This document shows positions 5,512 to 57,955 of a stretch of DNA of 64,000 bases, piece after piece (positions within the stretch are counted from its first letter, which is position 1; each line of letters opens with the position of its first letter). Under the pieces are notes generated by a model. It ran no database searches and was not told the origin of the DNA. It saw only the letters and a list, made by a program, of their open reading frames with translations. Both the position numbers and the translations under genes were made by a program. Origin of the DNA: Shigella phage ESh36; sequence record ON528746, one strand, 5' to 3'.

Positions 5512-5715
5512 TTAATTCATATTACGCTTAATAACTTCAGCAACTTCTAGTAGTTCATCTTTAGTTGCAGTGTCGGATTGAATTTTATCTCTAATATCCT
5601 TAAAGCGGTTTTTAAATTCTTCGGCTTCTCCCATATCGAAAAAGCGTTGAATGATTCTATATTCTCGATGAACTGCTTTATCAAAAAGTTCTAAATTTAC
5701 TTTATATGATTTCAT
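5512..5715 (-). CDS. rIIA.1-like small protein
   Basis: 67-aa ORF between gene 60 and rIIA, preceded by an early promoter. Confidence 0.6.
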
Positions 5716-5740
5716 TTCAATATCCTCATTTGCCCAATTA

Positions 5741-5770
5741 ATTATACCACATCCTTGTGGTAAAGTAAAC
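5741..5770 (-). promoter_or_regulatory. T4-type early promoter
   Basis: GTTTAC, 18 bp, TATAAT on minus strand; the -35 G is the last base of the gene 60 stop codon. Confidence 0.6.
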
Positions 5771-6302
5771 TACTGGCTCATCCATTCTTTACGAAGGTCA
5801 GCATTATCTCCCATGAGCATTTCAAAAAGCTCTTTCCAGTTCTCAGGAAGTTTAACAACATCATATACTGGATTTTGAATCATCTCACGATATTCAGATT
5901 TTTCCAAAGAGCCAAGTCCTTTAATATAACGGATGCTATGTTTAGGTAGAGCATCTTTGGCACTCTCATATTCAGCGACTGTATAAAACCATTCTTGTTT
6001 TTTACCGACCTGAGCGATGATTACAGGAGTTTTGACAAAGCGAATTCTTCCTTGTTCAAACAGTTCTGGCCAATTACTAAAAAATCCGAGCAGAGAAGGA
6101 TAAATAGAACCTAATCCAATAATCTCTTAATTATGAGGTATTTCTATAGATAGCCCGAAGGCTATCCATCGTGATCTGCGTCTGTCATAATAGCGACATT
6201 CGCATAGTTCATTGAAGAGGATTTAATAGAACGACGAACATTGTTCTGCAATTTATATTTTTTCATATCAACGCTAGAAGAATCAATTTTTACAAATTTC
6301 AT
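5770..6302 (-). CDS. 60: DNA topoisomerase II small subunit gp60, interrupted by 50-nt bypass; CDS = join(6165..6302, 5770..6114) on minus strand
   Basis: Codons 1-46 MKFVKIDSS...MTDADHDG end at take-off GGA, then UAG and a 50-nt gap with CUUCGG hairpin and landing GGA, then LGSIYPSLLGFF...EWMSQ in frame. Confidence 0.85.
6115..6164 (-). other. 50-nt translational bypass (hop) element of gene 60
   Basis: mRNA UAGCCUUCGGGCUAUCUAUAGAAAUACCUCAUAAUUAAGAGAUUAUUGGA between matched GGA codons. Confidence 0.85.
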
Positions 6303-7101: not shown

Positions 7102-8632
7102 CTACTGTTATCCATTTACCATTAATCTGTACTTCATCATTTTCATTTACGATAATTGTATCGCCATTTAGTTCGAAAGTAAACCACTCGCCATCTTCTT
7201 TTTCTTCAAACGCCTTTTCACCAAGAACTAATCCAGTGATTGCGCAAATATCAAATAATTCTTTGTTTTTAAGCATATCGGCATATGACATACCCCAACT
7301 GTTGAGAACTTTACCACGTAATGGATAACCGCCATGAAGTTCTTTATCACGAACATCAATAAGATATCCGATAGCAGAATCACCCTCAGTCAAGAAAAGA
7401 GTAGTGTCAGCGTCTTTACCGCAAAGATTCGCTTTAATATGTTTATGAACCTTAGCTTTAGAAGCCTTTTTAGCTGCTTTAGTTTCTGCTGCTTTTTCTG
7501 CCGCCAATTTACGAGCCAAGGCAGCTTCAATAATTGGCATCAAAATAGCTTCATTATTTAGAATAGCGCGTGAAATCTTTTTAGCATCAAGTTGAATATG
7601 ACTACGGATTTCACCAAATGGAGAAGTCAAACGCTCTTTAGTCTGAGAATCAAATCGCATGTTTTTCATATCACGAACAAACATAACGATAGTCAAACAT
7701 TCTTTAACGCGTGCTTTAGTTACATCAATTTTGAACTTGCGTTTGATTTGTGGAATAAGGTCTTCACAAATATCATCCATAACACAGTCAATGTGATGGC
7801 CACCATTCTTAGTATGAATGTTATTGACGTATGTTAATTGACGAAAACCATCCGGTGAACGACCAACCGCAATAGAACAATTTTCTTGTTCTTGAACGAT
7901 AGCATGTTCATCATACTGTCGTGCATATTTCTTAAAATTGCCCTGAACCTTTTTACCATTAAAGGTAAATTGAATATCAGGATAAACAACAGCAAGTGTC
8001 TGGAGACGATCTAGTGTAATGTCAAGATAAACCTGAGATAGCTCATTAGTTTCAAATGACATAAAATCAGGAATGAAAGTAACACGAGTTCCTTTCCATT
8101 TTCCAGGAATAGTTTCCCATGATTTATTTTCCATGCCATTTGAACAACGAACTACAATATTATTTTGACCGTCGCCAGTTTCACCGACAAACATCACAGA
8201 AAAAATGTTAGTTAAACTAGAACCAACACCGTTCATACCGCCAGTGACACGTTCTTTATCATCGCCAAAGTTACCACCTGCTTTTGGAATAGTCCATGCA
8301 GCAACAGGACCAGGAATTTCTTCACCGGTAGGTGTTTTAACCATTGCCTGTGGAATACCACGACCGTTATCTTCAACTGTTACTTGGTTGTTTTTGATAG
8401 TAACATTAATTTTATTTGCGAATTTAAACTTAGTACGAATACCTTCATCTACTGAGTTATCGATAATTTCATCAATAAGCTTAACAAGACCAGGTACATA
8501 CTGAACACTTTCCCATTTACCAAACAGAAAGCGCTCATGCATTTCATTAGCAGAAGAACCAATGTACATGCCGCTACGCTTTTTGATATGTTCAATATCG
8601 CTCAGAATTTTAATTTCATTCTTAATCATCAC
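7079..8632 (-). CDS. 39: DNA topoisomerase II large subunit (GyrB-like ATPase) gp39
   Basis: 517-aa ORF with GHKL ATPase motifs (IIDNSVDEG, GGMNGVGSS). Confidence 0.9.
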   Translation of the reverse strand: MMIKNEIKILSDIEHIKKRSGMYIGSSANEMHERFLFGKWESVQYVPGLVKLIDEIIDNSVDEGIRTKFKFANKINVTIKNNQVTVEDNGRGIPQAMVKTPTGEEIPGPVAAWTIPKAGGNFGDDKERVTGGMNGVGSSLTNIFSVMFVGETGDGQNNIVVRCSNGMENKSWETIPGKWKGTRVTFIPDFMSFETNELSQVYLDITLDRLQTLAVVYPDIQFTFNGKKVQGNFKKYARQYDEHAIVQEQENCSIAVGRSPDGFRQLTYVNNIHTKNGGHHIDCVMDDICEDLIPQIKRKFKIDVTKARVKECLTIVMFVRDMKNMRFDSQTKERLTSPFGEIRSHIQLDAKKISRAILNNEAILMPIIEAALARKLAAEKAAETKAAKKASKAKVHKHIKANLCGKDADTTLFLTEGDSAIGYLIDVRDKELHGGYPLRGKVLNSWGMSYADMLKNKELFDICAITGLVLGEKAFEEKEDGEWFTFELNGDTIIVNENDEVQINGKWITVGELRKNL

Positions 8633-9870: not shown

Positions 9871-9922
9871 CTATATCAGTAGTTGATATTGATATAGTAC
9901 CATAATCAACTACTGATGTATA
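9871..9922. repeat. inverted repeat (13-bp perfect arms, extended imperfect) in cef-motB intergenic
   Basis: atcagtagttgat ... atcaactactgat flanked by ctatat / atatag. Confidence 0.6.
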
Positions 9923-9947
9923 TAGTTTTATGAAAAAATTTTAAACT

Positions 9948-10436
9948 TTATGCATAGAGAGCTTTGCTGTAGTGTTTAATCCAACTTTCAGGAATGACTT
10001 TGTATGTTCCTAAAAATACCACGTTGTACAACTTAACGCCATCTTCTACCCACTGATCGGTAATGTATGCGCACATAGCACGAGTATAAACAGCCGCACC
10101 ATCATCTTTGATAAATTTAAATTCACAAGGAGCAATGAACTTAATAGCCTGACCGAGTTTCCACTTAAAGTCTACACCTACATGCGAAGTATCAATCGTT
10201 TCAATTCCTTTAGCAGGAACAGCTTTCAAAAACGCAGACTCAAGAAATTTCGCACGAACATAGCCAAACTGGGGTTTAGACTTTCCATCTTTAGGAATGA
10301 TACGCACTTTTACTTCAGAATCTTCATCTTTAACGCCGTGTTTAAGCTGAATGCTTACAATTTCGACCAATTTTCCTGCTGCTTTAGAACGGGATTTATC
10401 AGATACACGAGCAATTTCACCAATATTAATAATCAT
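9948..10436 (-). CDS. motB: MotB-like protein
   Basis: 162-aa ORF; size and position match T4 motB; preceded by early promoter. Confidence 0.6.
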   Translation of the reverse strand: MIINIGEIARVSDKSRSKAAGKLVEIVSIQLKHGVKDEDSEVKVRIIPKDGKSKPQFGYVRAKFLESAFLKAVPAKGIETIDTSHVGVDFKWKLGQAIKFIAPCEFKFIKDDGAAVYTRAMCAYITDQWVEDGVKLYNVVFLGTYKVIPESWIKHYSKALYA

Positions 10437-10480
10437 AGTTATCTCTCACTTGTTAAAAAGATTTTATACTCCACAGGACC

Positions 10481-10510
10481 ATTATACTCTGGTCCCAAGA
10501 GTTTGTAAAC
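10481..10510 (-). promoter_or_regulatory. T4-type early promoter
   Basis: GTTTAC, 18 bp, TATAAT on minus strand. Confidence 0.6.
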
Positions 10511-10512
10511 TA

Positions 10513-11052
10513 TTAATTCAAAATAGCTACCACTGCACTACGAGGTACTACACTAAAATCACCTGCATGAACAACGTTCAGAAGTTCAACACCATCTTCA
10601 ATCCACTGGTCTGTTACCCAACCACAGACCGAAATAAATGGGGTCTTGATAGCTACAGCACGAGTTAGAAGGTCAGTAGGATCGCATTCTTGGAAGAGGA
10701 TAAGCTCTGCTTCAAAGACTATAGTTTTAATTACTTCATCATTATCTAAGCGTTGTGCTCGAATCACATAAGCTTTATTCTTATCATGCCAATTACTTTT
10801 TGAAAAACTTTTAACCACAAACTCGCCTTCACCCAAAACACTGGTCAATGCTTTATAACCCAAACTTAGTTCAGTAGTTTTAATTTCAGTTTCAACCAGT
10901 TTGTAGGTTTTGCCGATTTCAATAGCGGTAGTCATAGTAGGTTCCTTAATTTCCAGTGGTTTAACAGGGCATACATAAGTGCTTACAACATCAAAATCAA
11001 TCAGTTTAGCTACCGGATTTGGTGTGTATTCAGGATTATAATTAAATTTCAT
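10513..11052 (-). CDS. hypothetical protein
   Basis: 179-aa ORF. Confidence 0.5.
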   Translation of the reverse strand: MKFNYNPEYTPNPVAKLIDFDVVSTYVCPVKPLEIKEPTMTTAIEIGKTYKLVETEIKTTELSLGYKALTSVLGEGEFVVKSFSKSNWHDKNKAYVIRAQRLDNDEVIKTIVFEAELILFQECDPTDLLTRAVAIKTPFISVCGWVTDQWIEDGVELLNVVHAGDFSVVPRSAVVAILN

Positions 11053-11054: not shown

Positions 11055-11555
11055 TTATCTCATTTCAATAAAATCTACGAGTTCAGCATGCGATTTGCGG
11101 AACATTACTTGGTGCCCGCCAATGATAACTTGGTCATTTGGCACTTCATATACAGCAAGATAAAATCCTTTAGAAGATAATTCTTCACGCTCTTCTCGTG
11201 TGAACCATCTCATCATATCATATTCACTAGCGAAAGCAAAATGATAAAGAGCTATAAACCATCCAGGAATATGATATTCTACTCCAACATAATCTTTCTT
11301 GAACTTAGTATTAATTACTATATTAGCGTTTTTAACTAATAGTTTATCTTCGTGTGGTAAAGGAATTCTTTTATTATCATCACTATGATGCATAAAATTA
11401 GGTCTACTATAACCTACACGTAATAGCCACTCTTCGCTCCATGAATCTATTATACTCCTGTATGGTGTTATTTGAACACAAAGATTTCGACGCATTGTTA
11501 TAGCATCTTCATAATCAAGAATGCTAAACGATGATTCAACACGATAAATTTTCAT
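11055..11555 (-). CDS. hypothetical protein
   Basis: Start at internal ATG 11555 (MKIYRVESS) with GAGGA and early promoter upstream. Confidence 0.5.
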   Translation of the reverse strand: MKIYRVESSFSILDYEDAITMRRNLCVQITPYRSIIDSWSEEWLLRVGYSRPNFMHHSDDNKRIPLPHEDKLLVKNANIVINTKFKKDYVGVEYHIPGWFIALYHFAFASEYDMMRWFTREEREELSSKGFYLAVYEVPNDQVIIGGHQVMFRKSHAELVDFIEMR

Positions 11556-11582
11556 TTTATTATCCTCAGTAGCTATGGTGTT

Positions 11583-11612
11583 ATAATACCACAACTAACC
11601 GAGGAAGTAAAC
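11583..11612 (-). promoter_or_regulatory. T4-type early promoter
   Basis: GTTTAC, 18 bp, TATTAT on minus strand. Confidence 0.55.
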
Positions 11613-11618
11613 AACTTT

Positions 11619-12302
11619 TTATCGTTTTGTTGGAAGAGATAGAGGATCGCACTCTTCCTCTGACGGAGCATCTTCAAGACCCATAGCATACCGCAAAGCA
11701 TACTTCATCATCAGGATGTCTTTCGCACAGTCATGAATAGAATCATGTGCAACGAATCCATCTAAAGTTCCCTTTGGAAGAGGACATGTAGTCATATCAC
11801 GAACAAGCAGAAGTGCTTCAATTCTGGTACGAATATCACGTTGATTCCAGAATTTACAAGGTTCTAACTTAAACGTATCAAGCTCATTCTCGGAAACGCC
11901 ATTAAGACGTTGAATATCGCGAATGAGATCAACTAAAATTGGAAAATCAAACGACATTCCACGGCACCAGCCTTGAGATTTCCAAGGATCGATGTTATGT
12001 GCATTGATGTAATCATTAAATTTTGCAATACCATCGATGGTGCTTACATCTTCATCTGATGGTGCAATATTTTTTCGAGCTTCTGGAGATTGGTTTTTCC
12101 ACCATTCGATAGTGCTTTTAGTAAAAAGACGATGTCCTTTTTGGCTTTTTAAATCAAACTTGATTTTAATGCCGCGTGAAACTAATTCATCAAACGTTTC
12201 AACTACTTCTGGATTAGGGTCAAAGGCAATAACAGCCAAATCAATAACAGCTGCCTTTTCACCGCTTCCCATTGTTTCAAAATCTATAATAAAATCAAAC
12301 AT
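11619..12302 (-). CDS. dexA: exonuclease A (DEDD family)
   Basis: 227-aa ORF, N-terminal DFETMG exonuclease motif; size matches T4 dexA. Confidence 0.8.
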   Translation of the reverse strand: MFDFIIDFETMGSGEKAAVIDLAVIAFDPNPEVVETFDELVSRGIKIKFDLKSQKGHRLFTKSTIEWWKNQSPEARKNIAPSDEDVSTIDGIAKFNDYINAHNIDPWKSQGWCRGMSFDFPILVDLIRDIQRLNGVSENELDTFKLEPCKFWNQRDIRTRIEALLLVRDMTTCPLPKGTLDGFVAHDSIHDCAKDILMMKYALRYAMGLEDAPSEEECDPLSLPTKR

Positions 12303-14664: not shown

Positions 14665-15411
14665 TTATCCTCGGATAAGTTTAAAAATTGAACAATTTAG
14701 CGGGTATCCTCTTTTTAGTTTAAGTTTATCAATAAAAGACAAGTTTTGATACCGCTCTACACCTTGAATAATTTTATCACACATATCATATTGCATTTCT
14801 GCTTCTGACAACTTTTTCACAGTTTTCCAATCAGAGCCTTTAAGAAGAACGTTCAATTTAACAACTTCAGTGCCTTCTGCTATACGAGAACCATCAATAC
14901 GAGCTTTGAGTGCTACAATCGTTAGCTTAATGTCTGAGGTTTGTTTTGATTTAGAAAGCTGAGAAATGTGTTCAATTCGGTTTTCACGTTTTTTCTGTAT
15001 AGCTTTAATTTGATTATAAGTCTTTTTGATTTTAGCCCATTTCTTTTCATCTAAATTTAGTTTATGAACCTTTTTCGCAGATGAACGACCAATTCGCAAA
15101 GCAAATAAATCACGCTTTTCAATCAACTCTTCTAAAGTATAATCAGAACGAAATGTATTGTACTTTTTCTTTACTGCAATAACATTCCCTTTAATGTATC
15201 CAACGTTATTATCAAAACGTTCTAATGATAATTTCTCTCCTTCAATACGATTATCAAAAGGTTCTCCTGAGTAAGCGCAAACTTTCTGATCTAAAATGTT
15301 CTTAATGTAATTGAAGTCTAAGTTAAAATCTTTAGAACGTCTTTTAGCAGATGCCTGGGTATGCTCTAGACGACGTGTAATTTTACGAATTTGATTTTTA
15401 GACAGTTTCAT
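14665..15411 (-). CDS. srd: Srd-like protein
   Basis: 248-aa basic ORF between dda and modA; positional assignment. Confidence 0.5.
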   Translation of the reverse strand: MKLSKNQIRKITRRLEHTQASAKRRSKDFNLDFNYIKNILDQKVCAYSGEPFDNRIEGEKLSLERFDNNVGYIKGNVIAVKKKYNTFRSDYTLEELIEKRDLFALRIGRSSAKKVHKLNLDEKKWAKIKKTYNQIKAIQKKRENRIEHISQLSKSKQTSDIKLTIVALKARIDGSRIAEGTEVVKLNVLLKGSDWKTVKKLSEAEMQYDMCDKIIQGVERYQNLSFIDKLKLKRGYPLNCSIFKLIRG

Positions 15412-15441
15412 ATTTTTCTCACGGACGGGTTAACTACTTAT

Positions 15442-15471
15442 ACTATAACATTTTTACTTCAGCTTGTAAAC
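15442..15471 (-). promoter_or_regulatory. T4-type early promoter
   Basis: GTTTAC, 18 bp, TATAGT. Confidence 0.55.
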
Positions 15472-15527
15472 AACTTTATGAAAAATGCTTTAAAACTTTC
15501 ATGGTATAATGAATCTAAGTCCTTCCA

Positions 15528-16130: not shown

Positions 16131-16750
16131 TCAACTACCTCAATATCATACACTTTAAATGTTCCAAATGAATCGTGTAATTTTTCTTTTGAAATAGAAG
16201 TTATTTTATACTTTCCAATTGGAATCATCCATTCTTGTTCACGCACAATCATCATTAAGTTATCAGTACGTTCTGAATCTAATCCATCAGTATCTTCATA
16301 TGTATACTTAAACTCAGTATTAGGAGAAGAAAGTATAATATCACTGATATGGTCAGAATAATTAAAAGCTTTATCAGTTTTTAAGCGAAATATTATTTCA
16401 GTGGAATATTCAACATAAGAAAAACCACATGCTGTGTGCAAACTAGTAGTAAATGAATCTACTCTGTTCGTTGAAAACACTTCTCCAACTTGCAAATCTT
16501 TAATGAGTTCTTTTGTCGATTTTGATATACCACGATATAGCTGATAAGGCGATTTAGTTAAATGCTTTTTAATGATTTTATTCAACTGCCGATGAAGAGC
16601 TTCATTCTTTTTGGCTTCCATACATTGCCAAAGAACTGACTGTTCAAAGTCAGTAAATTTTTCACAGACCTTTTTATACATATCATATTGAAAATCGACA
16701 CTTTCAGCTTTTATAGATAACTGTTCAACATCTGCAAGATTAATAATCAT
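16127..16750 (-). CDS. modB: ADP-ribosyltransferase ModB-like
   Basis: 207-aa ORF preceded by early promoter. Confidence 0.65.
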   Translation of the reverse strand: MIINLADVEQLSIKAESVDFQYDMYKKVCEKFTDFEQSVLWQCMEAKKNEALHRQLNKIIKKHLTKSPYQLYRGISKSTKELIKDLQVGEVFSTNRVDSFTTSLHTACGFSYVEYSTEIIFRLKTDKAFNYSDHISDIILSSPNTEFKYTYEDTDGLDSERTDNLMMIVREQEWMIPIGKYKITSISKEKLHDSFGTFKVYDIEVVE

Positions 16751-16776
16751 GATAGCCTCCGTATACTTCAGAAGCT

Positions 16777-16806
16777 ATCATATCATTGTTAGGAAGGAAA
16801 GTAAAC
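16777..16806 (-). promoter_or_regulatory. T4-type early promoter
   Basis: GTTTAC, 18 bp, TATGAT. Confidence 0.5.
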
Positions 16807-16818
16807 AACTTTTTTGAA

Positions 16819-17001
16819 TTATTTTGCCCAGGGAGCCCAGGGCGGAGGGTCAAGATGGTATGAAGCTAGTTCTTCTAGAAGAGCATCTGGGGCTTCAATT
16901 CCATAATTCTGTAATACTATACGGTACTCTTTCTTATAATCACTAGAATCATTCTGGATATTCGTAGAATGATTATCTTCTAACATCTCAAATAAATCCA
17001 T
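16819..17001 (-). CDS. hypothetical protein
   Basis: 60-aa ORF. Confidence 0.4.
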   Translation of the reverse strand: MDLFEMLEDNHSTNIQNDSSDYKKEYRIVLQNYGIEAPDALLEELASYHLDPPPWAPWAK

Positions 17002-18683: not shown

Positions 18684-18850
18684 TCAGTGTATCGCATTTC
18701 AGCATTGAACTCGACTGAACCATCTGCATGCATCATGAATGAATGCGTGACGACATCACAATCCCAGCTTTTCATACCCCATTTATCAGAGATAGCTTTA
18801 TCAAGAACCTTCTGGAGGTCTTCATTTGGTTTAATCCAGCGATTTAACAT
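18638..18850 (-). CDS. hypothetical protein
   Basis: 70-aa ORF preceded by early promoter. Confidence 0.45.
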   Translation of the reverse strand: MLNRWIKPNEDLQKVLDKAISDKWGMKSWDCDVVTHSFMMHADGSVEFNAEMRYTDWGGFQRVEFQRGFL

Positions 18851-18876
18851 AGTGCTCTCCTCTATAAGATAATTTT

Positions 18877-18906
18877 ATTATACCACACTCATTTTGACAT
18901 GTAAAC
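18877..18906 (-). promoter_or_regulatory. T4-type early promoter
   Basis: GTTTAC, 18 bp, TATAAT. Confidence 0.6.
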
Positions 18907-18919
18907 CATAAAATGAAAA

Positions 18920-18941
18920 AAGGAATCCCGGAGGATTCCTT
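18920..18941 (-). terminator. hairpin terminator after soc
   Basis: mRNA AAGGAAUCC-UCCG-GGAUUCCUU followed by UUUUCAUUUU. Confidence 0.5.
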
Positions 18942-18947
18942 AAATTA

Positions 18948-22194: not shown

Positions 22195-22487
22195 TATTCA
22201 CCTACCACTTCAGCGATGATATTTTTATTATTAAAGTTTTTATCGCAATACAGAACATAATTATACTGCATTACACCACCAGATTTAAGTTGTTTTTGCA
22301 CTTTAGCTTTCATTTCAGGACGATCGCGCTCAACGATATTCATAATATCTGCTTCAATTTGAGTTTCAACCTCAGTCTGATCCGCAGTCATAGACCATTC
22401 ACACAAATCTTTGTCATAACCCGCCATAGCAGGCTGAGCAGCGCAAGAAGATAAAGCAAAAATTGCAGCAAAGATAAATTTTTTCAT
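22194..22487 (-). CDS. sp: Spackle-like periplasmic protein
   Basis: 97-aa ORF with signal peptide; size and position match T4 sp. Confidence 0.6.
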   Translation of the reverse strand: MKKFIFAAIFALSSCAAQPAMAGYDKDLCEWSMTADQTEVETQIEADIMNIVERDRPEMKAKVQKQLKSGGVMQYNYVLYCDKNFNNKNIIAEVVGE

Positions 22488-22515
22488 GATAATCTCCTCA
22501 GTAGTTTATGTTTAT

Positions 22516-22545
22516 ATAGTATCTCAATTTCCAATAAAAGTAAAC
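22516..22545 (-). promoter_or_regulatory. T4-type early promoter
   Basis: GTTTAC, 18 bp, TACTAT. Confidence 0.55.
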
Positions 22546-22547
22546 AG

Positions 22548-22805
22548 TTATTTTAAAACTTTTGCGTAATCACATGTTACAAACTGTTTCTCTAGCTTAA
22601 CGATCTTACGAAAATACCTTTTACACTGACGAATCTGTCGCTTCGTAGGACGTACAGCAAACTTAATAAATTCCACTCGACCAGATGGAGGACTTTCTTC
22701 TGGTGGAATATCTAACACCAATTCCCACGTATCTGCAATAAGTGCTTTGAATTGAGTATTTTTCCTGATGTTATACGGTGTAGGTTTAAATAAAACAATA
22801 TGCAT
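22548..22805 (-). CDS. hypothetical protein
   Basis: 85-aa basic ORF. Confidence 0.45.
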   Translation of the reverse strand: MHIVLFKPTPYNIRKNTQFKALIADTWELVLDIPPEESPPSGRVEFIKFAVRPTKRQIRQCKRYFRKIVKLEKQFVTCDYAKVLK

Positions 22806-22806: not shown

Positions 22807-22989
22807 TTATCCTCGGCAATCTACTTCACATACTTTCTTGTCATCAATGAAAGCTTTAACTAATGCTTTATTAACTTCAGCATATTGAGTAGTAGCCCAT
22901 TGAACGTCATCTTTCATCATTGTGATCTCTTTAGTAAACATGCTTTCATTCTTAAACCACCCCATAAAAACTACCTTTACCAATTCCAT
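22807..22989 (-). CDS. dmd: Dmd antitoxin-like protein
   Basis: 60-aa ORF just downstream of gene 41, preceded by early promoter; size and position as T4 dmd. Confidence 0.65.
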   Translation of the reverse strand: MELVKVVFMGWFKNESMFTKEITMMKDDVQWATTQYAEVNKALVKAFIDDKKVCEVDCRG

Positions 22990-23018
22990 AACAATCTCCC
23001 CATTTAACCAACAAGACT

Positions 23019-23048
23019 ACTATACCATAGTCTTGTCAGCTTGTAAAC
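23019..23048 (-). promoter_or_regulatory. T4-type early promoter
   Basis: GTTTAC, 18 bp, TATAGT; -35 overlaps the gene 41 stop codon (TAGTTTAC). Confidence 0.55.
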
Positions 23049-23671
23049 TAAAATTTTAATTCATTTGCCAAAGCATCTAACTGTGCTCGAGTGGATTCAT
23101 TTCTTTGATAGCGATTCTGCTCAGCCTGAATCTGTTGTGAACCTGCTACCTCACTCACTTCAGTTGGAGTAGAATCTTGTTCAATTTCTACCCATTTCTG
23201 ATTTCCTTTTTGAACACCCATCAAAAACTTATTCCATTTGTTCTTATCACCATATCGTGATTTGATTTGCTTAATGAGTTGTTGTTCAGCAGCTGCTAAC
23301 TCCTCAGTTTCAATGACTGCAAGCATAAAATCAGCTGTTGCTGGAAGTCCGGCACTGTTTTTAGTCAGTATACCGTTAGCATAGAAAAGCTGGTCCCCGG
23401 CAACAGAAATATCATACATCATGTCTTCTTCGAGTTCTTCAATTTTCAGAACTTCATCATTATAATCAAGTAATTTATCTGTTTTCTCATAAAGCTTAGC
23501 GTTATACTTTTCTGTCTGCATCAGAGCTTCAAAGATTTCTTCAGCGGAAGAATCATTACCGTTGATTGATGCATAATGATTAGCAATTGACCAACATCTT
23601 AAAGATGCTAGATACTCATCAAAATCCGTGTACTCTGCCGTCCCATCCAAATTATACACATTAGCAAGCAT
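23048..23671 (-). CDS. 41: helicase gp41 C-terminal fragment: split-intein C-half fused to C-extein
   Basis: KIEELEEDMMYDISVAGDQLFYANGILTKN (intein blocks F/G) immediately followed by SAGLPATADFMLAVIETEEL... helicase C-terminus; start of C-half uncertain. Confidence 0.75.
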   Translation of the reverse strand: MLANVYNLDGTAEYTDFDEYLASLRCWSIANHYASINGNDSSAEEIFEALMQTEKYNAKLYEKTDKLLDYNDEVLKIEELEEDMMYDISVAGDQLFYANGILTKNSAGLPATADFMLAVIETEELAAAEQQLIKQIKSRYGDKNKWNKFLMGVQKGNQKWVEIEQDSTPTEVSEVAGSQQIQAEQNRYQRNESTRAQLDALANELKF

Positions 23672-30611: not shown

Positions 30612-30848
30612 TCAAATACAAGTAGTAATTACTCCAGTAGTGCTTATGCAGGTATTACCCATTTGCACACCTAAAGATCCATTTGTATTCACATGAAGAT
30701 TATCATCAATTTTAACTGATATTTTACCATTAGTGTGAATAACGGTGCTAGATTCAATCACAGGTTGAGTATCATTTTCAACACTAACAAATGGAACTGC
30801 TGCTAATGCAACTAAACAAACTGCTAAGCATCCCATAACAATTTTCAT
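30612..30848 (-). CDS. small secreted/membrane protein
   Basis: ATG at 30848 (MKIVMGCLAVCL) with GGAG SD and early promoter; track ORF extends through promoter. Confidence 0.45.
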   Translation of the reverse strand: MKIVMGCLAVCLVALAAVPFVSVENDTQPVIESSTVIHTNGKISVKIDDNLHVNTNGSLGVQMGNTCISTTGVITTCI

Positions 30849-30885
30849 TTCATTCTCCAAATCCGTATCAGTAGTTGATAGTTGT

Positions 30886-30915
30886 ATAGTACCACAGAGG
30901 AACAGTCTTGTAAAC
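30886..30915 (-). promoter_or_regulatory. T4-type early promoter
   Basis: GTTTAC, 18 bp, TACTAT; part of a repeated cassette. Confidence 0.6.
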
Positions 30916-31003
30916 CGTTTTGTGAAAAATTTTTTAATGAATTCCAAAGGTCCAGAATCATCTATTTTTCCTAAGTATAGATTTATATTACTTGTATGAA
31001 AAA

Positions 31004-31019
31004 GGGACCCGGAGGTCCC
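31004..31019 (-). terminator. hairpin terminator after gene 43
   Basis: mRNA GGGACC-UCCG-GGUCCC followed by UUUUUC. Confidence 0.5.
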
Positions 31020-31032
31020 TAGATTTATTCTA

Positions 31033-33729
31033 TCAGCCAAACAGGAAGTCTAACGAAGCTTTTTCTTCATAGTCCATACCAGCCGATTCACACATGCCCG
31101 CAAGCGGTTTAACAAACGATTTTTGGAACAAAGTTGAGTAGTCAATCCAAGATAGTACATCAGAACGAATTTCTTTTGGAAGTTCTGTGCCCGACGGCCA
31201 AGCAATGCACTTGTCACCAAATGGATTTCCTTCACGCAATGGAAGAACCATTACTTTATTTCCATCCAAAATTGGAGCTACACCCAGACCACTAACAGCT
31301 CGACGATAAGTTAGCACACCGCGAATATGGAACGGACATTTAAATCCTGGCCAACCTTTATCATCATATTTTGCTATATCGTTCGCAGTTTTTACTTCAG
31401 CAATAACTTTATAGTCAAGTTGACGATATTCTTTCTCGAAGTTCTTGTAGTATTCTTGGACAGACTCTTCACCTTCCTGAAGAATACGACGAATACTTTC
31501 TTCGAGAGCTTCTTGTACTGCTTTTGGTGTTGAACTCTGCTGAGTTTCCATACCCATGATTTTTAGATGCGGTTCAGCAAATCGCTTATCTTCCATATCA
31601 TAAACGTTCAGAGCATAACGTTTTTTCGCTTTCCAAAATCCACCAACACCCTTTGAACCAAGCGGAGGGCAAGAAATAGCTTCACGGTCCATATGCATCA
31701 GATGCTCGCGGTTATTCATATAGTCACATAACTCACGATATGCAACATCAATCATAGGTTCCATCTTTTTCTTACCGAACTGATTCATGAATTCAACTAA
31801 ATCATTTTGTTCTTTAAAGCGATCAAGACCTACTTTTTCAATAACTTTATCTACACAAACGTATACCGAATCAGTATCACCTGCTGCGATGAAATCTTCA
31901 CCATTAGTTCCACACACTTTATTTAGATATTCATTAATTTTGCGAGCAATCCACTGAATACCGACTTGACCGAAAATTGTGATAGCAGTAGCATTTCGCA
32001 AATCATAGTAACGGAAATGAATATTACCAAGAGCACCATAAAGACTGTTAATAAGAATTTTACGGTTCAACTGATTTGTGTTAGCAAGCGTAGCTGCTTT
32101 TTCACATTCTTCGATCAGACTATTAAGAACAGATTCAGTGTAATTCGATAATTCGTTTAAGAAATCATCACTGAACTTAACATATCGTTCAACTTCTGGT
32201 TTAGTTGAACAAGACCCTGCACCTTTCATAATAATCTTTTTAATAGCTTCGGCATTCATTTCTTCCGCGAACATTTTCTTTTTCCAATCTTTACGCTGGA
32301 AAAATACTTTAGCGATTTCCTTTGGAATGATACCTTCTTGGTGCTTATCATACATCCATCCATTCGGAGAGCAAGAATATTCATCACTTGGCTTAGGAGC
32401 TGTTCCTGCGATATATTCATGAATTGGATGAACTTTAAACTGCCCACGAATAGTCTCAGGACTAATGTTAACCTGACGAATAATGCTAGGATACAGAGAC
32501 GTCAAGTCAAAACTCATAATGTATCGACGAGCAATCGGTTTAGGTTCAAACACAAATGCACCTGGAAAACTCTGTTTAACGTGCGAACCTTGTTGAGGAA
32601 TAACCTTATGTTCACCTTTCAGTGAGTTAAAAATAATAGCATCCCAAGTTTTAATAGGACTCATTACACCAGAAAAAGGCATTTTAGCGTAATAAGACAT
32701 ACTTAAAACTAGATCGATAAACCCACGAATTTTATCAATTGCTTGAACTGATTCTACGTCAATGATGTTATAACTAATGTATCGTTGATGATTAGTCTCA
32801 CGAAGTTTATTAATAGGACCATCGTACGGCAATTTACCTTTTTTGGTTTCATGTTGAGCAACTGATTCCAAAGAGAACGATGGCAAATTAGTAAATGCGA
32901 ATTTCTTGTACAAATCTAAATAATCAAGAATAGATACGCCATCAATAGAATAAATTTCTTTGCTACCGTACATATTTTGAATTAGTTTAGATTTTACTCG
33001 ACCGATTGGAGAGAAGCGTTTCATACTACGTTCACCGAGAACCATTTTAACGCGATTCATGATATACGGAACGTCAAATCCCTCAATATTCCAACCAGTA
33101 AAAATAGCAGGTCGTTTCTGTTCCCAAAGATTGATATATTCCATGAGCATATCACGCTCATTATCGAATGGCATATAAATTACTCGGTCAAGAATTTCTT
33201 GAGGAACTTCATCACCACCTTCACAGTCAAGCTTAGCAGCTAACTTTGCATCCCATTTTGATACTGAACCGTACATTGAATTCAACAAATCAAAGACGTA
33301 AAAACGATCGTCAATTGAATCATAATGAGTGATAGCATCAATTTCATATTCAGCTTTCATTGGGTCAGGAAATTTATCACCAGTAACCTCAATGTCACAG
33401 TTAGCTACACGAACAAATTTTCGGTCATAAACAATTTCTGAACCATATGTATCACTGATATAAGCGAGTTTAAAATCGTTCATACCGAGAGCTTCGAGAC
33501 CAATGTCTTCCATTCGTTTCATCCAGTCTCGTGCATCTTTCATTGATGGAAATTTTTGAGGAGCGCAGTTTTTACCATAGATGTCTTTGTACTTTGACTC
33601 TTCCTTACAGTGCCTAAACATAGTCGGAAGATATTCTACTTCACGAGTACGTTCCTTTCCGTTTTCATCAATATAACGTTCAACAATGTTATTTCCGACT
33701 GTTTCAATAGAGATATAAAATTCTTTCAT
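31033..33729 (-). CDS. 43: DNA polymerase gp43 (family B)
   Basis: 898-aa ORF with exonuclease and polymerase motifs; length equals T4 gp43. Confidence 0.92.
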   Translation of the reverse strand: MKEFYISIETVGNNIVERYIDENGKERTREVEYLPTMFRHCKEESKYKDIYGKNCAPQKFPSMKDARDWMKRMEDIGLEALGMNDFKLAYISDTYGSEIVYDRKFVRVANCDIEVTGDKFPDPMKAEYEIDAITHYDSIDDRFYVFDLLNSMYGSVSKWDAKLAAKLDCEGGDEVPQEILDRVIYMPFDNERDMLMEYINLWEQKRPAIFTGWNIEGFDVPYIMNRVKMVLGERSMKRFSPIGRVKSKLIQNMYGSKEIYSIDGVSILDYLDLYKKFAFTNLPSFSLESVAQHETKKGKLPYDGPINKLRETNHQRYISYNIIDVESVQAIDKIRGFIDLVLSMSYYAKMPFSGVMSPIKTWDAIIFNSLKGEHKVIPQQGSHVKQSFPGAFVFEPKPIARRYIMSFDLTSLYPSIIRQVNISPETIRGQFKVHPIHEYIAGTAPKPSDEYSCSPNGWMYDKHQEGIIPKEIAKVFFQRKDWKKKMFAEEMNAEAIKKIIMKGAGSCSTKPEVERYVKFSDDFLNELSNYTESVLNSLIEECEKAATLANTNQLNRKILINSLYGALGNIHFRYYDLRNATAITIFGQVGIQWIARKINEYLNKVCGTNGEDFIAAGDTDSVYVCVDKVIEKVGLDRFKEQNDLVEFMNQFGKKKMEPMIDVAYRELCDYMNNREHLMHMDREAISCPPLGSKGVGGFWKAKKRYALNVYDMEDKRFAEPHLKIMGMETQQSSTPKAVQEALEESIRRILQEGEESVQEYYKNFEKEYRQLDYKVIAEVKTANDIAKYDDKGWPGFKCPFHIRGVLTYRRAVSGLGVAPILDGNKVMVLPLREGNPFGDKCIAWPSGTELPKEIRSDVLSWIDYSTLFQKSFVKPLAGMCESAGMDYEEKASLDFLFG

Positions 33730-44899: not shown

Positions 44900-45115
44900 T
44901 TAAATTTTCCAGTTACCATTTTCATCAATAAATTTAATCCAATCATTTACTGACCACTTGGTCGTATCGCCTTTTGGAGCAACATTTAAAGTGTATAATC
45001 CTTGTTTAAAAAGCATGCGTTTGATATTCATATTTTCCTCAGCTGTAACGATAGCACTCGTTTGATTTACGCTTAGCAACTCGTTGAGAAGTATTGTAAT
45101 CAAAATCATCGTCAA
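44900..45115 (-). CDS. hypothetical protein
   Basis: 71-aa ORF. Confidence 0.4.
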   Translation of the reverse strand: MTMILITILLNELLSVNQTSAIVTAEENMNIKRMLFKQGLYTLNVAPKGDTTKWSVNDWIKFIDENGNWKI

Positions 45116-45332
45116 TGTAAACTGATTTTTTCAACTTTCTTACTTCACCACGTAATTGGCGATTTAACTCATCTTTAACTTCTGAATCAATGCCTTTCAT
45201 TCTACGCCATTTATCAGAGCGAAAAATGTTTTCGACCATATCTTTATGACTTACACCATCAGGAGCTTTACGCTTTCCAAAATAGTCATAATCACGCACT
45301 TTTAAATCTTTACGACGATACGTTTTACCCAT
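45039..45332 (-). CDS. hypothetical basic protein
   Basis: ATG start MGKTYRR inside track ORF 45039..45377. Confidence 0.4.
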   Translation of the reverse strand: MGKTYRRKDLKVRDYDYFGKRKAPDGVSHKDMVENIFRSDKWRRMKGIDSEVKDELNRQLRGEVRKLKKSVYIDDDFDYNTSQRVAKRKSNECYRYS

Positions 45333-45531
45333 GGAGTTTAATTTCCTTAGCAACTGAACTAAATACAGCACGATCACAAATCAAGCGTTTATTCCATTTA
45401 AGTAAAGTATAGTGAACCTCAAAATCATCTACTGCTGTAACAATAACAATATGTCCGTTAACACGATAATACTGATCTCTTTTAATCTCTTTATCAACCA
45501 TATCAATTCCTCAAAGGCAATTCATGTGTTA

Positions 45532-45561
45532 ATAATACCACAGTTTGAACTTCTTGTAAAC
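45532..45561 (-). promoter_or_regulatory. T4-type early promoter
   Basis: GTTTAC, 18 bp, TATTAT. Confidence 0.55.
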
Positions 45562-45658
45562 AACTTTGTGAAAATTATTTTAGGGAATGATAAGAAGGGA
45601 ACGATAGTTAGAATGGTAATATACAGAATGTGAGAAAGAAAGGCCCAGAGGGCCCATC

Positions 45659-49587: not shown

Positions 49588-49617
49588 ATTATATACTGTT
49601 TCTTCATCAGTGTAAAC
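49588..49617 (-). promoter_or_regulatory. T4-type early promoter
   Basis: GTTTAC, 18 bp, TATAAT. Confidence 0.55.
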
Positions 49618-51977: not shown

Positions 51978-52979
51978 TTACTTAATTAACTGTAAAGCTT
52001 GTTCCAAACGATCAAGGCGATTAACAGATTCTTCCCAAATCCTTTTAGCACTTTCATATTCTTTTTCTGCTTTATTTTTAATTTCTAAAGCTTCTTTATA
52101 AGCTTTTTCTAGTGCAATAACTTCTGGACGAATTTCTATTGGCTCAGGAGAATCATCGAGCCAATCCATCAATTCTTCAAGTGTGGTTTCTTCTTTAGGA
52201 GCATTCACAATTTCTTCACATTTCTTCTGATGAATTTCTTTATCTGTTAGTGAATAAGTACATTTCACTTCACGAAGACTAACTACAATTTTATATCCTT
52301 CCCAACCGCATATATTCTTAAAAGGATATGTATGAATATTTTCTACTGTTTCCATACAAAGTAGTGCAGTCTCTAATTGACGAGTTATATCGCTAGCAAT
52401 TGAGAAAAATTTATTGATGTTCTTTTGATTAGCTTCTGGTGTAAAAAATTCATAATTCACAAAAATAGCTGCTTTATTTTTATCAAGTTCATATTCTTTT
52501 ATGATAATCATATCAGAAGCCCAAGGATGAATTTGACGATAATCGCCATAACATAATTTAGAAGCTGATTTTAGAATCTGTCCTTTGAAAAGTCTGAAAT
52601 TACTGATCCAACGACGAGTAAAAATATTCTCAGGGTCTTCTTTATTATTAAGATGATATGAATTAACATCACCGAACCAATTATATCCTACTACATCTTT
52701 AGTTCGTTTAATTTCTTTCCCAAATTTACCAAGAATATCTTGGTTAACTAAATATGAAAGAAGACGAGACCCTTTAAAGGTTTCCTTAATATCATCTTTA
52801 TATTCGCGACTAGAAATTTTATGAACTTCATGAATAAATTTGCTGGAAGAAACAATACTTGCATCAGTATTATTGAGCCATTGATTGATAATGGAAATAA
52901 CGCTATTCTGACTAGACACAGGTTTAACTTTATCATCAATAACGCTATTGAATGATTTGATATATTCGTTACGAGTCAT
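51978..52979 (-). CDS. coiled-coil protein, tandem paralog 2 of 4
   Basis: Start at MTRNEYIK with early promoter upstream; GSRLLS and FRLFKGQIL...CYGDYRQI motifs. Confidence 0.5.
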   Translation of the reverse strand: MTRNEYIKSFNSVIDDKVKPVSSQNSVISIINQWLNNTDASIVSSSKFIHEVHKISSREYKDDIKETFKGSRLLSYLVNQDILGKFGKEIKRTKDVVGYNWFGDVNSYHLNNKEDPENIFTRRWISNFRLFKGQILKSASKLCYGDYRQIHPWASDMIIIKEYELDKNKAAIFVNYEFFTPEANQKNINKFFSIASDITRQLETALLCMETVENIHTYPFKNICGWEGYKIVVSLREVKCTYSLTDKEIHQKKCEEIVNAPKEETTLEELMDWLDDSPEPIEIRPEVIALEKAYKEALEIKNKAEKEYESAKRIWEESVNRLDRLEQALQLIK

Positions 52980-53007
52980 ATTAATCTCCTCAGTAGAAAG
53001 TAAGAAC

Positions 53008-53037
53008 ATTATACCACATCCTTGTGGCAAAGTAAAC
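53008..53037 (-). promoter_or_regulatory. T4-type early promoter
   Basis: GTTTAC, 18 bp, TATAAT; -35 overlaps upstream stop codon. Confidence 0.6.
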
Positions 53038-54059
53038 TAGTTTAGTGCATTTAGTGCATTGTTCAGTTTAGAACGTTGCTTTGTCAGATTTTGAACCCTT
53101 GACTGAGCTTGTTCTAACACCTTTTCAGTTTCTAGCACTTCATTGGTCGCTTTAACGAGTTCATCATCTACTGCCTTAAGAGACTTCTCAATCGCGTCAG
53201 CGTGCCATTTTTCTACAGGTTTAAAATTTGAATTTTCAGTAGGAAGAAAACTCACTTTATTAAGTTTACATGCATCTATATTGCTTGAGCTATACATCCA
53301 AAATTTAGGATCGTTTGATGAGTAATTGGATAAATTTAAGATATCTTGCACTTCCTGCTTTTTCTCTTGCGGGACTTCGTCCTTTCTCAAAAAATCGTAT
53401 TTAAATGAAACGAACATATCAAGTTCATATGTTGTTGTGTCTAATTTAAATCGTTCGAAATGCTGTGAAATCTTAGACTGAACAGTGGCAACAACATCCA
53501 TATACTTAAATGCTTCTGTCAACTGCGATTTAAGGCATTCGCAAATTGAAAGAGAATTTTTTGTATTAGGTTTAAAGCTAATTCGCGCAGTTCTGTTATT
53601 TTCTTTTAATGGTCTTACTTCCATCTGAAGAGTATAACCATCAAATTTCAGGTTCTTTAAGTTAATGTCAGAACCTTTTAATCGACTAGCAGTCGACAAA
53701 ATTTGCTTTAATTGTCTACGGAACAGAGCAATAAATCTCCATTCAATACGATAATGATTTGGATTGAAAAATCCAGATGATAAATCGACCTTACTTTGAC
53801 CAACACCTTGAACAAATAGAGGATTTTTATAATCAATAGTTTTACAGAAATCGGTGAGCTGTTCACGAGCAGTCATTTGAGTAATATACCCAGCTTCATT
53901 AAAATTACGCACCCATTCACTGCTGTTCAGATGTTTAAAGGCGTGAATGGAACAATTAACTTTATCAGGGTCTAAATTATTTTCACACAAAAATGTCATA
54001 ACATTACGAGTATCGCTGGCAGTACGAACCATATCTTCAATTTGAGAACGAGTTTTCAT
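53037..54059 (-). CDS. coiled-coil protein, tandem paralog 3 of 4
   Basis: 340-aa ORF; FIALFRRQLKQIL motif and C-terminal coiled coil. Confidence 0.5.
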   Translation of the reverse strand: MKTRSQIEDMVRTASDTRNVMTFLCENNLDPDKVNCSIHAFKHLNSSEWVRNFNEAGYITQMTAREQLTDFCKTIDYKNPLFVQGVGQSKVDLSSGFFNPNHYRIEWRFIALFRRQLKQILSTASRLKGSDINLKNLKFDGYTLQMEVRPLKENNRTARISFKPNTKNSLSICECLKSQLTEAFKYMDVVATVQSKISQHFERFKLDTTTYELDMFVSFKYDFLRKDEVPQEKKQEVQDILNLSNYSSNDPKFWMYSSSNIDACKLNKVSFLPTENSNFKPVEKWHADAIEKSLKAVDDELVKATNEVLETEKVLEQAQSRVQNLTKQRSKLNNALNALN

Positions 54060-55425: not shown

Positions 55426-55953
55426 TTATGCGAGTACCGTCTTTAACCGTTCTTCAAACTTCCGAAGAGTATTTTGGCGTTCAGCTCTTTGCTTTTTGTA
55501 AGTTTCAATACGCTCTGAAATGAGAGTGTATCGTTCATTTACCGATTCTTTCATAAAATCAGGAATTTCACGAGAAGCTTTAATCTCGTCAAATTTATCA
55601 ATAACAGCTTGTTCTTCAGCAATTAAGTTATCATACATTAAAATATCTTTCTTGATGAACTCAATATCTTCTTGAGTTACACGAGATAATTTAGATGCTT
55701 TATCCTTTTTGTACTGTTCGTTAGTATCACGAGACCAGTGTAATGTACGATTTTTATTCGTATTCTTGTAAATTTCTACAATACCAATCTCATCAATAAT
55801 AACGATCCAATTCCAACGGGATTTGTAAATTTGTCCTCCATCAACAGTGATTTCACCTCCGATTGAGATGTCATTAAAGAACTTGCTTTGTGCTTCAGAT
55901 TTAAATTTACCATCGTTGTAATTTACCAAGTTGAAAATATCTTTAGCGTTCAT
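55426..55953 (-). CDS. hypothetical protein
   Basis: 175-aa ORF preceded by early promoter. Confidence 0.5.
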   Translation of the reverse strand: MNAKDIFNLVNYNDGKFKSEAQSKFFNDISIGGEITVDGGQIYKSRWNWIVIIDEIGIVEIYKNTNKNRTLHWSRDTNEQYKKDKASKLSRVTQEDIEFIKKDILMYDNLIAEEQAVIDKFDEIKASREIPDFMKESVNERYTLISERIETYKKQRAERQNTLRKFEERLKTVLA

Positions 55954-55981
55954 TTTCTGTTCCTCCGTAGTTGATAGTTGT

Positions 55982-56011
55982 ATAGTACCACAGAGGAACA
56001 GTCTTGTAAAC
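55982..56011 (-). promoter_or_regulatory. T4-type early promoter
   Basis: GTTTAC, 18 bp, TACTAT; repeated cassette copy. Confidence 0.6.
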
Positions 56012-56013
56012 CA

Positions 56014-56328
56014 CTAAAAGAAACTTCTTTCACAATTTTTTCCACTGAACCAGGCGCTCACTGCTTTCTTAGTCTCAGGAGCAGTGTTATCCATAAACCA
56101 TTCAAAGGCAGCCTTTTTATGATTCTGGAGGGCTTCTCGGGCTTTAATCTGCTCACGGTCTATTAACACTAACATATGAGCCTTTCTTGTCACCATGGGC
56201 TTCTTATGATTTTTTGAATACTCCCAGTCATTTGTCCATCGCATTGTCGTTGCGAACTTAAATACTGCTTCTTTAATTTTAGTTTCGTAAATTTCACGAG
56301 CCTTTGAGTATAACATCATTACCTCCAT
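56014..56328 (-). CDS. hypothetical protein
   Basis: 104-aa ORF. Confidence 0.45.
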   Translation of the reverse strand: MEVMMLYSKAREIYETKIKEAVFKFATTMRWTNDWEYSKNHKKPMVTRKAHMLVLIDREQIKAREALQNHKKAAFEWFMDNTAPETKKAVSAWFSGKNCERSFF

Positions 56329-57386: not shown

Positions 57387-57422
57387 TTTATTCTCCAATC
57401 TCACATTTGTTTTGATAGGGTA

Positions 57423-57452
57423 ATAGTATCACACTACTACCCTTCTGTAAAC
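57423..57452 (-). promoter_or_regulatory. T4-type early promoter
   Basis: GTTTAC, 18 bp, TACTAT. Confidence 0.55.
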
Positions 57453-57455
57453 AAT

Positions 57456-57719
57456 TTATTTTAACGTTCGCCAAATTTTTACTGCTTCACGGCGAGATAC
57501 TTCTACAGCTCCAAGTTCTATAGCTTTTTGGCGTCGGCGAGCGTGTAAGTCATAATGTTTAATGCGTTTATCTTGAAACCAAGAACGTTTCATTCCTATT
57601 GCTTCTGCCATTTCATGAAGCTCTTCAATATCTCCATCAGTGAACATATGACAATTTTTAGTTGGATGACCGCGAAGTTTCCATCCATGATTCATTAAAA
57701 CATCTACGTAAACTGTCAT
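57456..57719 (-). CDS. hypothetical protein
   Basis: 87-aa ORF. Confidence 0.45.
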   Translation of the reverse strand: MTVYVDVLMNHGWKLRGHPTKNCHMFTDGDIEELHEMAEAIGMKRSWFQDKRIKHYDLHARRRQKAIELGAVEVSRREAVKIWRTLK

Positions 57720-57865: not shown

Positions 57866-57899
57866 TTTATTCTCCAAATCCGTATCAGTTGATAGTTGT

Positions 57900-57929
57900 A
57901 TAGTACCATAAAGCTTTATGCTTGTAAAC
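57900..57929 (-). promoter_or_regulatory. T4-type early promoter
   Basis: GTTTAC, 18 bp, TACTAT; repeated cassette copy. Confidence 0.6.
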
Positions 57930-57955
57930 CACTTTGTGAAAAATTTTTGAAATAA

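Follow-up and report, generated by a model that had tools for sequence, protein, structure and literature searches.

Repeated T4-type early promoter cassettes in Shigella phage ESh36 and their probable exchange by homology-driven recombination

Introduction

What is the segment that precedes a small early gene at position 30,848 of the Shigella phage ESh36 sequence, and do its many relatives along the same strand represent promoters only or also sites at which genes are exchanged? An earlier note on this DNA had read them as early promoter cassettes and as likely substrates for homologous recombination that shuffles the small accessory genes they flank. We analysed the 64,000-nt stretch of record ON528746 that contains the site (hereafter the window) and compared it with six complete genomes of relatives, T4, pSs-1, Lutter (NC_054924), NIC06P2, ESh34 and CJY920.

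The window is the early/middle gene arm of a Tequatrovirus, spanning ndd to tk, and is collinear with T4 (NC_000866) at about 95% DNA identity. T4 166039-168903 (ndd.1 to rIIB) corresponds to window positions 1-3312, and T4 1 to ~60344 (rIIA to tk) to position 3313 onward. All genes in the window lie on the minus strand, and the G+C content is 31-37%. A 3-kb stretch around the site matched 558 phage records, 481 of them at 95-99% identity, with Escherichia and Shigella Tequatroviruses as the best matches.

The early promoters of T4 are a documented class (PMC2988021, PMC6024815). They are UP/-35/TGn/-10 promoters for the host sigma-70 polymerase (PMC2988021) and carry GTTTAC at -36 to -31 (PMC1524935). 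A composite of early promoter, stem-loop, Shine-Dalgarno sequence (SD) and ATG has been named PeSL, for promoter-early stem-loop (PMC2839356, PMC4122927); for T4/PST, the consensus reads TTTACW-N17-TAYWAT, preceded by an AT-rich region and followed by SD and ATG (PMC4122927). PeSL-mediated modular shuffling has been described, the T4 and PST pair included (PMC2839356, PMC4122927), and mini-circles arising from crossover between two PeSLs were demonstrated in RB49/phi1 (PMC2839356). Neither the promoter class nor the idea of shuffling is new (T4 early promoters; PeSLs, PMC2839356, PMC4122927).

Results

A dispersed family of T4-type early promoters

The pattern GTTTAC-N18-TAnnnT matched the window 21 times, with 21/21 matches on the minus (coding) strand, versus 0.74 expected from shuffles of the window (sd 0.89, maximum 4); at least 19 such minus-strand sites had been claimed. 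A relaxed scan of the plus strand returned one site with exact GTTTAC. A generic sigma-70 scan of the window gave 84 sites versus 87.1 in shuffles and thus no excess, with the cassettes at the top of its ranked list, so only the T4-specific motif is informative. An Rfam scan of the whole window found no family at gathering score.

The copies share a common architecture (Table 1). An extended -10 element (TGn) stands directly before the -10 hexamer in 16 of the 21, and SD and ATG follow 19-38 nt past the predicted start in 18. P45122 is a nineteenth copy with SD-ATG, so the SD and start codon of the next gene form the 3′ end of the cassette in 19/21 copies, and GGAG lies within the SD in 13 of these 19 leaders. 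Mean A+T of the 24 nt upstream of the -35 is 0.72 versus a background of 0.66 (sd 0.09); an A/T-rich upstream consensus, AAAAAnTTTTCAnAAAnTG, is clear in one subfamily only. The copy at the site itself, 30886-30915 with its leader to ATG 30848, proved to be as the earlier note had described it. P7184, P45122 and P49617 are atypical. P7184 and P49617 have neither TGn nor a nearby SD-ATG, the region upstream of P49617 is GC-rich, and one or two of the atypical sites may be chance matches. A putative degenerate cassette at 9874-9945 contains a perfect 13-bp inverted repeat (ATCAGTAGTTGAT/ATCAACTACTGAT) around TACTAT; NIC06P2 and CJY920 carry a 200-bp insert about 25 nt downstream of it.

Table 1. 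Predicted early promoter cassettes of the window and associated features.
Feature	Position	Strand	Description
P770 cassette	710..810	(-)	promoter 741-770, leader, ATG 712, 37-aa ORF at the ndd.4 position (599-712); spacer pairs with SD, 15-bp hairpin
P1276 cassette	1217..1316	(-)	promoter 1247-1276, ATG 1219, ORF MKFKFYYAK
P5770 cassette	5713..5810	(-)	upstream of rIIA.1; spacer 94% identical to that of P53037
P7184 atypical 30-mer	7155..7184	(-)	no TGn, no nearby SD-ATG
Degenerate cassette (putative, read from sequence)	9874..9945	(-)	-35 ATATAC; repeat family D4
P10510 cassette	10434..10550	(-)	upstream of motB; leader 38 nt; GGACC/GGTCC hairpin over -10
P11612 cassette	11553..11652	(-)	upstream of motB.2; 17-bp hairpin, spacer with leader and SD
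P15471 cassette	15409..15511	(-)	upstream of srd
P16806 cassette	16748..16846	(-)	upstream of modB; -10 TATGATAGC pairs with SD..ATG GGAGGCTATCATG
P18906 cassette	18848..18946	(-)	upstream of mrh.2
P18906 terminator hairpin	18920-18941		ends 13 nt before GTTTAC
P22545 cassette	22485..22585	(-)	upstream of sp
P23048 cassette	22987..23088	(-)	upstream of dmd; 15-bp hairpin over -10; P61137 paralogue
P30915 cassette (site under study)	30846..30955	(-)	promoter 30886-30915, leader 31 nt with GGAGAATGAAA, ATG 30848
78-aa ORF of P30915	30612-30848		inserted ahead of imm.1
Terminator hairpin	31003..31020	(-)	AGGGACCTCCGGGTCCCT and T-run; after gene 43, 87 nt upstream of P30915
P45122 cassette	45029..45162	(-)	no TGn; leader 55 nt; ATG 45031; 43-aa ORF
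P45561 cassette	45499..45601	(-)	upstream of 55.6 homologue
P49617 atypical 30-mer	49588..49617	(-)	inside coding sequence; upstream region 38% A+T, no TGn
P53037 cassette	52977..53077	(-)	upstream of nrdC.4
P56011 cassette	55951..56051	(-)	upstream of nrdC.8; 15-bp hairpin, spacer CTGTTCCTCTGTGGT with ACTACGGAGGAACAG
P57452 cassette	57384..57492	(-)	upstream of nrdC.10; leader end = RegB-consensus GGAGAATAAAA; 12-bp hairpin over -10
P57929 cassette	57863..57990	(-)	terminator hairpin 57958-57977; 49-aa ORF 57716-57865; DUF4031 ORF 57456-57719
P61137 cassette	61077..61177	(-)	upstream of ORF at the mobD.2 position
P61937 cassette	61877..61990	(-)	terminator hairpin 61953-61970; upstream of mobD.5 homologue

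The cassettes are concentrated in the accessory regions of the window, and the longest gaps between them (23048-30915 and 30915-45122) cover the replication gene blocks. They lie upstream of orthologues of the T4 early genes rIIA.1, motB, motB.2, srd, modB, mrh.2, sp and dmd, and also head the imm.1 region, 55.6, nrdC.4, nrdC.8, nrdC.10, mobD.2 and mobD.5. Lutter has 18 annotated 30-mer 'promoter' features; 15 of them show this signature at orthologous sites, and its counterpart of P30915, ahead of the imm.1 region, is identical in sequence. The cassettes resemble T4 early promoters (Pe) in the GTTTAC -35, the canonical 17-bp spacer, TGn, TAnnnT, the position before orthologous early genes and, in one subfamily, an A/T-rich upstream consensus. 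They differ in nothing of substance, except that a few head ORFs missing from T4. These are a 78-aa ORF ahead of imm.1, two ORFs ahead of nrdC.10 (49 aa and DUF4031) and, ahead of ndd.6, the ORF MKFKFYYAK, which is part of a window insert (988-1229).

T4 architecture, early-gene positions and the 15 orthologous sites annotated in Lutter all point to the early-promoter reading that the earlier note had proposed, and it is on T4 orthology and consensus that promoter function is predicted. We consider it probable, at roughly 0.87, that the repeats are sigma-70-dependent T4-type early promoters with leader, SD and ATG whose copies exchange by homology-driven recombination. By analogy with T4, host RNA polymerase would fire them in the first minute of infection through the A/T-rich upstream element, GTTTAC at -35, TGn and TAnnnT at -10, and the transcript would start about 7 nt past the -10, typically at ...CT-A-TCAAC.

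Start codons of small early genes

The cassettes also bear on gene calling. Three ORF calls (599..847, 30612..31040 and 57716..57982) had been suspected of misreading cassette sequence as protein, and each indeed has an SD-preceded ATG in frame, at 712, 30848 and 57865, which gives products of 37, 78 and 49 aa, respectively. The Lutter homologue of the second is annotated as 237 nt, the length from ATG 30848. The cassettes supply reliable start codons for very small early ORFs, which mechanical ORF calling extends upstream by 39-64 codons, and they mark transcription units within the accessory regions.

Identity between copies exceeds consensus in a subset

Several copies had been called almost identical over 50-70 bp. 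This is correct for P770/P56011 (61/67 identical, 91%), P30915/P56011 (a 46-nt exact run; 48/49) and P30915/P57929 (83/98, 85%) and does not extend to the others. P1276 has 76-91% identity over 44-92 nt to the others, P57929 and P57452 share a 19-nt exact run across SD-ATG, and the longest exact run of P61937 with any other copy is 17 nt. A 39-mer, CAACTATCAACTACTGATACGGATTTGGAGAATGAAATG, said to follow the -10 often, occurs once in the window even when three mismatches are allowed.

Over all 21 copies, mean pairwise identity is 43% from -25 to +50 and 38% in the spacers. Such low identity outside the hexamers, with most copies sharing consensus positions only, is what would be expected if the copies were alike only through selection for strong promoters and a ribosome-binding-site (RBS) consensus, with no exchange between them. 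Yet the spacers, which are free of consensus, are identical at 18/18 positions in P770, P30915 and P56011 and at 17/18 in P5770 and P53037. A functional need for identical spacers at all of the first three sites is unlikely, since P30915 has no anti-SD pairing partner for its spacer. Paralogues moreover covary within genomes, against orthology. In the window, in pSs-1 and in ESh34, P770 and P30915 have one and the same spacer; T4 has a different variant, again common to both, and NIC06P2 shows a mixture, a pattern that requires ectopic exchange. P30915 is itself a chimera: its spacer and core are those of P56011 (the 46-nt run), its upstream region and leader are of the P57929 type, and its flanks are 85% identical to P57929. 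With these chimeric cassettes and the 19-bp junction repeat described below, convergence by selection alone is contradicted for the near-identical copies and appears highly improbable.

Small genes inserted behind and between cassettes

Under the preferred reading, exchange between copies, the exact runs of 17-46 nt that they share, including the -10/start-site core TGGTACTATACAACTATCAACT and the SD-ATG module TTGGAGAATAAAATGAAAA, would be the points of contact. T4 recombination acts on short homologies (cited in PMC2839356), and, as the comparison shows, because runs of this length are shared, homology-driven recombination occasionally joins one copy to another, within a phage or between phages. 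Crossovers insert, delete or re-head small accessory ORFs, and gene conversion homogenises cassette spacers.

Comparison of the relatives supplied cases of this kind. In T4, pSs-1 and ESh34, the P57929 promoter and leader sit directly on nrdC.10. The window and NIC06P2 have an extra 460 bp that contains the 49-aa ORF, the DUF4031 ORF (domain match E=1e-21) and a second cassette, P57452. P57929 and P57452 bracket this insert (57398-57859), and a 19-bp copy of the SD-ATG module, TTGGAGAATAAAATGAAAA, is repeated on either side of it. At 30601-30835, 988-1229 and 44910-45026, the first ATG downstream of the promoter is precisely where an extra ORF begins, and the repeats measure 8-14 nt; the 43-aa ORF of P45122 is absent from CJY920, with the junction at ATGAAT. 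Together with 5779-5806, these four intervals are small-ORF indel or replacement events that adjoin cassettes, and CJY920 has an 886-bp insert at the P5770 site. NIC06P2 and IMG/VR contigs join the same promoter and ORF by different leaders. The window provides clean cases in which a small accessory gene has been slotted in immediately after an early promoter already in place, or between a pair of copies, as well as cases in which promoter copies separated by 25-55 kb have undergone gene conversion.

Cassettes take part in shuffling without excess over other gene boundaries

A breakpoint census was made in the six complete relatives, which replaced IMG/VR loci whose coverage was too patchy (20 loci hit). 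Of the 45 distinct indels or replacements recorded, 9 touch cassettes of the window versus 3.7 under random placement (p=0.011). Against a gene-junction null, no cassette enrichment was seen in these six genomes: cassettes head 17/123 gene starts (13.8%), and 4/40 boundary-associated events fall at cassette-bearing starts.

These proportions are what one would obtain if the cassettes were promoters and not special recombination substrates, with indels arising at any gene boundary from short homologies such as ATGAAA(A/T) start regions, from hairpins or from homing endonucleases, and hitting cassettes proportionately. In the same direction, at three of the four junctions resolved precisely, 8-14 nt around ATGAAAAT or ATGAAT served instead of promoter sequence, about 10 events in the six relatives are homing-endonuclease or intron insertions, and Comeau 2014 also invokes non-PeSL short-homology events (PMC4122927). 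However, the 19-bp SD-ATG repeat at 57398/57859 joins two cassettes, spacers homogenised across 25-55 kb and swapped leaders presuppose exchange from cassette to cassette, crossover mini-circles between PeSLs were shown in RB49/phi1 (PMC2839356), and six genomes are a small sample. We therefore regard proportionate, boundary-driven indels as a serious contender whose chances fall somewhat short of even.

The cassettes take part in shuffling, and a driving role is unsupported by the six-genome sample. Exchange between copies is established by junction repeats, chimeric cassettes, swapped leaders and concerted spacers, which bears out the view of them as recombination substrates, with no excess over gene boundaries. 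The published shuffling idea is tempered to this extent, as most indels in the region are not at cassettes.

We also considered whether the cassettes form a small mobile element, MITE-like or integron-cassette-like, with a site-specific mechanism of its own. The copies are dispersed, some genes lie between two of them, and a dedicated recombinase was raised as a possibility by the PeSL authors (PMC2839356). No terminal inverted repeats or target-site duplications are common to the copies, no integrase or transposase was seen beside them, and all are co-oriented with transcription. The crossover point varies between the -10/start core, the SD-ATG module and the ATG, as homology-driven exchange predicts. 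Lacking shared ends and a fixed crossover point, MITE or integron-like mobility was rejected; we give it hardly any credence.

Stem-loops and the PeSL class

The window cassette consensus equals the published T4/PST PeSL consensus. Arbiol et al. 2010 distinguished five stem-loop positions, including between the promoter boxes and over the -10, and marked G-T pairs (PMC2839356). In the window, 9/18 cassettes have hairpins with z-scores of -3.1 to -6.4 versus shuffled promoter segments. A terminator hairpin is located directly upstream (within 30 nt) of 3 cassettes and 79-87 nt away from 2 more; at the counterpart of the hairpin upstream of P30915, a terminator is annotated in Lutter. In 37 cassette families from other T4-like contigs, the minimum free energy was -11.0 versus -8.0 with swapped spacers (p=0.003), and the stems contained 27 G-T pairs versus 3 A-C mismatches. 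A stem-loop is present in many copies, either upstream as a terminator or spanning the spacer and -10, and in a minority it pairs the spacer with the RBS of the cassette's own gene.

The likeness to PeSLs covers stem-loops upstream, inside the spacer or over the -10 with G-T pairs included, copies that flank variable small ORFs, and crossovers between the -10 and SD/ATG. By contrast, a terminator-type upstream stem-loop is present in only 3-5 of the 21 window copies, and the six-genome sample shows indels at window cassettes no more often than at other gene boundaries. Promoter-spanning hairpins were rejected as a new feature, given the stem-loops between or overlapping the -35 and -10 boxes in Arbiol 2010 (PMC2839356).

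A promoter spacer as candidate anti-Shine-Dalgarno strand

In four cassettes (P770, P56011, P11612 and P16806), the hairpin joins the promoter spacer (or the -10) as its 5′ arm to the SD as its 3′ arm. Folding predicts that the RBS is unpaired with a probability of 0.21-0.39 on read-through RNA, versus 0.66-0.83 on RNA started at the cassette promoter itself. These spacer-RBS hairpins have no U-tract; promoter-overlapping stem-loops are read in the PeSL papers as terminators or attenuators (PMC2839356, PMC4122927). Orthologous promoters keep the pairing with other arms: TTCCTCGGTTAGTTGTGG/ACCATAGCTACTGAGGA becomes TTCTCCTCATG/CATGAGGAGAA at motB.2, and CTGTTCCTCTGTGGT/ACTACGGAGGAACAG becomes ATCTCCAGTAG/CTACTGGAGGT at nrdC.8. 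In a MAFFT alignment of the motB.2 promoter orthologues, the arms were out of register between lineages, and individual folds were used instead. Spacer-SD/ATG complementarity with differing arms also occurs in distant-lineage loci (L144-L149, L157 and L158).

Natural spacers form a stronger duplex with the RBS than shuffled ones do across 80 cassette families (mean z -0.65, p=0.001), and 13/80 families reach z<-2 versus 5 in a reversed-RBS control. Within the window, a promoter-versus-leader permutation gave p=0.036, which rose to 0.25 after paralogues were collapsed, and RBS masking as a general property of the cassettes was dropped on this result.

For the subset formed by P770, P56011, P11612 and P16806, and for about every sixth to tenth family of T4-like phages, we tentatively suggest from the folding models, with more doubt than confidence, that the spacer may act as an anti-SD strand, so that the first gene would be translatable only from transcripts of its own early promoter. 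RBS-sequestering hairpins are known from the T4 genes e, soc, 49 and I-TevI (reviewed in PMC3014915). In these, as in the four cassettes, the 5′ arm lies upstream of the start of the proximal promoter, and the RBS is free only on proximal-promoter transcripts. There, however, the proximal promoters are late and keep a late protein silent on early read-through RNA, whereas in the window the proximal promoter is early, the 5′ arm is the promoter's own spacer, and the masking is predicted only. In the reviews consulted, the cases of RBS masking (e, soc, 49 and I-TevI) all concern late promoters. A text search of the accessible literature returned no report of RBS masking at early promoters; a promoter-embedded anti-SD conserved with different sequences in distant lineages is possibly new.

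The RegB endoribonuclease has the consensus GG*AGRAYARAA (PMC3014915). P57452 and P57929 match its 11 nt exactly and P30915 and P61137 with one mismatch, whereas most window leaders match the GGAG core only. By analogy with T4, GGAG leaders would be RegB targets. If masking is real, GGAG on upstream read-through RNA would be hidden from both ribosomes and RegB, expression would be tied strictly to the immediate-early window, and long transcripts would be protected at masked sites. A promoter-embedded anti-RBS would then be a simple built-in immediate-early restriction and a design rule for phage engineering; it is the only element here that could change understanding.

Other features of the window

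The replicative helicase gene 41 (23048-26028, minus strand) is fractured by a split intein at 23357-24909. The N-extein and IntN portion has the intein's starting Cys codon at 24909-24907 (CLDKSTVVKTLKGEKF..., 88 aa, then a stop), IntC ends at ...DISVAGDQLFYANGILTKN|S at 23357, and a free-standing 332-aa ORF (23661-24659) lies between the halves in another frame. Both halves have their match in gp41-1, a split intein of solved structure (PDB 6QAZ, E=3.5e-25). Gene 41 is intact in 6/6 relatives; among 50,697 phage records, megablast found the intein insert absent and tblastn found no match to the 332-aa ORF. The metagenomic 'fractured genes' of Dassa et al. 2009 resemble this arrangement (PMC2677866).

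Hairpins of the GGGC(UUCG)GCCC type occur on the minus strand at 2131-2147, 2360-2376, 8682-8697, 33789-33803, 35734-35750, 41046-41062 and 44685-44700 and make up repeat families D6, D8 and D10. We take them to be the classical T4 intercistronic CUUCGG tetraloop hairpins. Two of them lie at or within ~70 nt of indel breakpoints in relatives (33808 and 2060).

A 357-bp direct duplication at 21207-21612, single-copy in T4, has 49-nt ends that are 98% identical (family D13) and creates an extra 114-aa ORF (21222-21566), for which a Pfam search gave no match. The topoisomerase large-subunit gene is split by a T4-type insertion at 6105-7212 in the gene 60 / mobA / 39 arrangement. This insertion is common to T4 and absent from pSs-1, Lutter, NIC06P2 and ESh34; P7184 lies 28 nt inside its upstream edge. 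The translational bypass region of gene 60 is presumably at ~6115-6164, from alignment to T4 2803-2852. Finally, a 595-bp insert at 40282-40878, relative to T4, pSs-1, NIC06P2 and CJY920, contains a 163-aa ORF (40393-40884) whose GIY-YIG domain barely reaches the Pfam threshold and which is probably a seg-type homing endonuclease.
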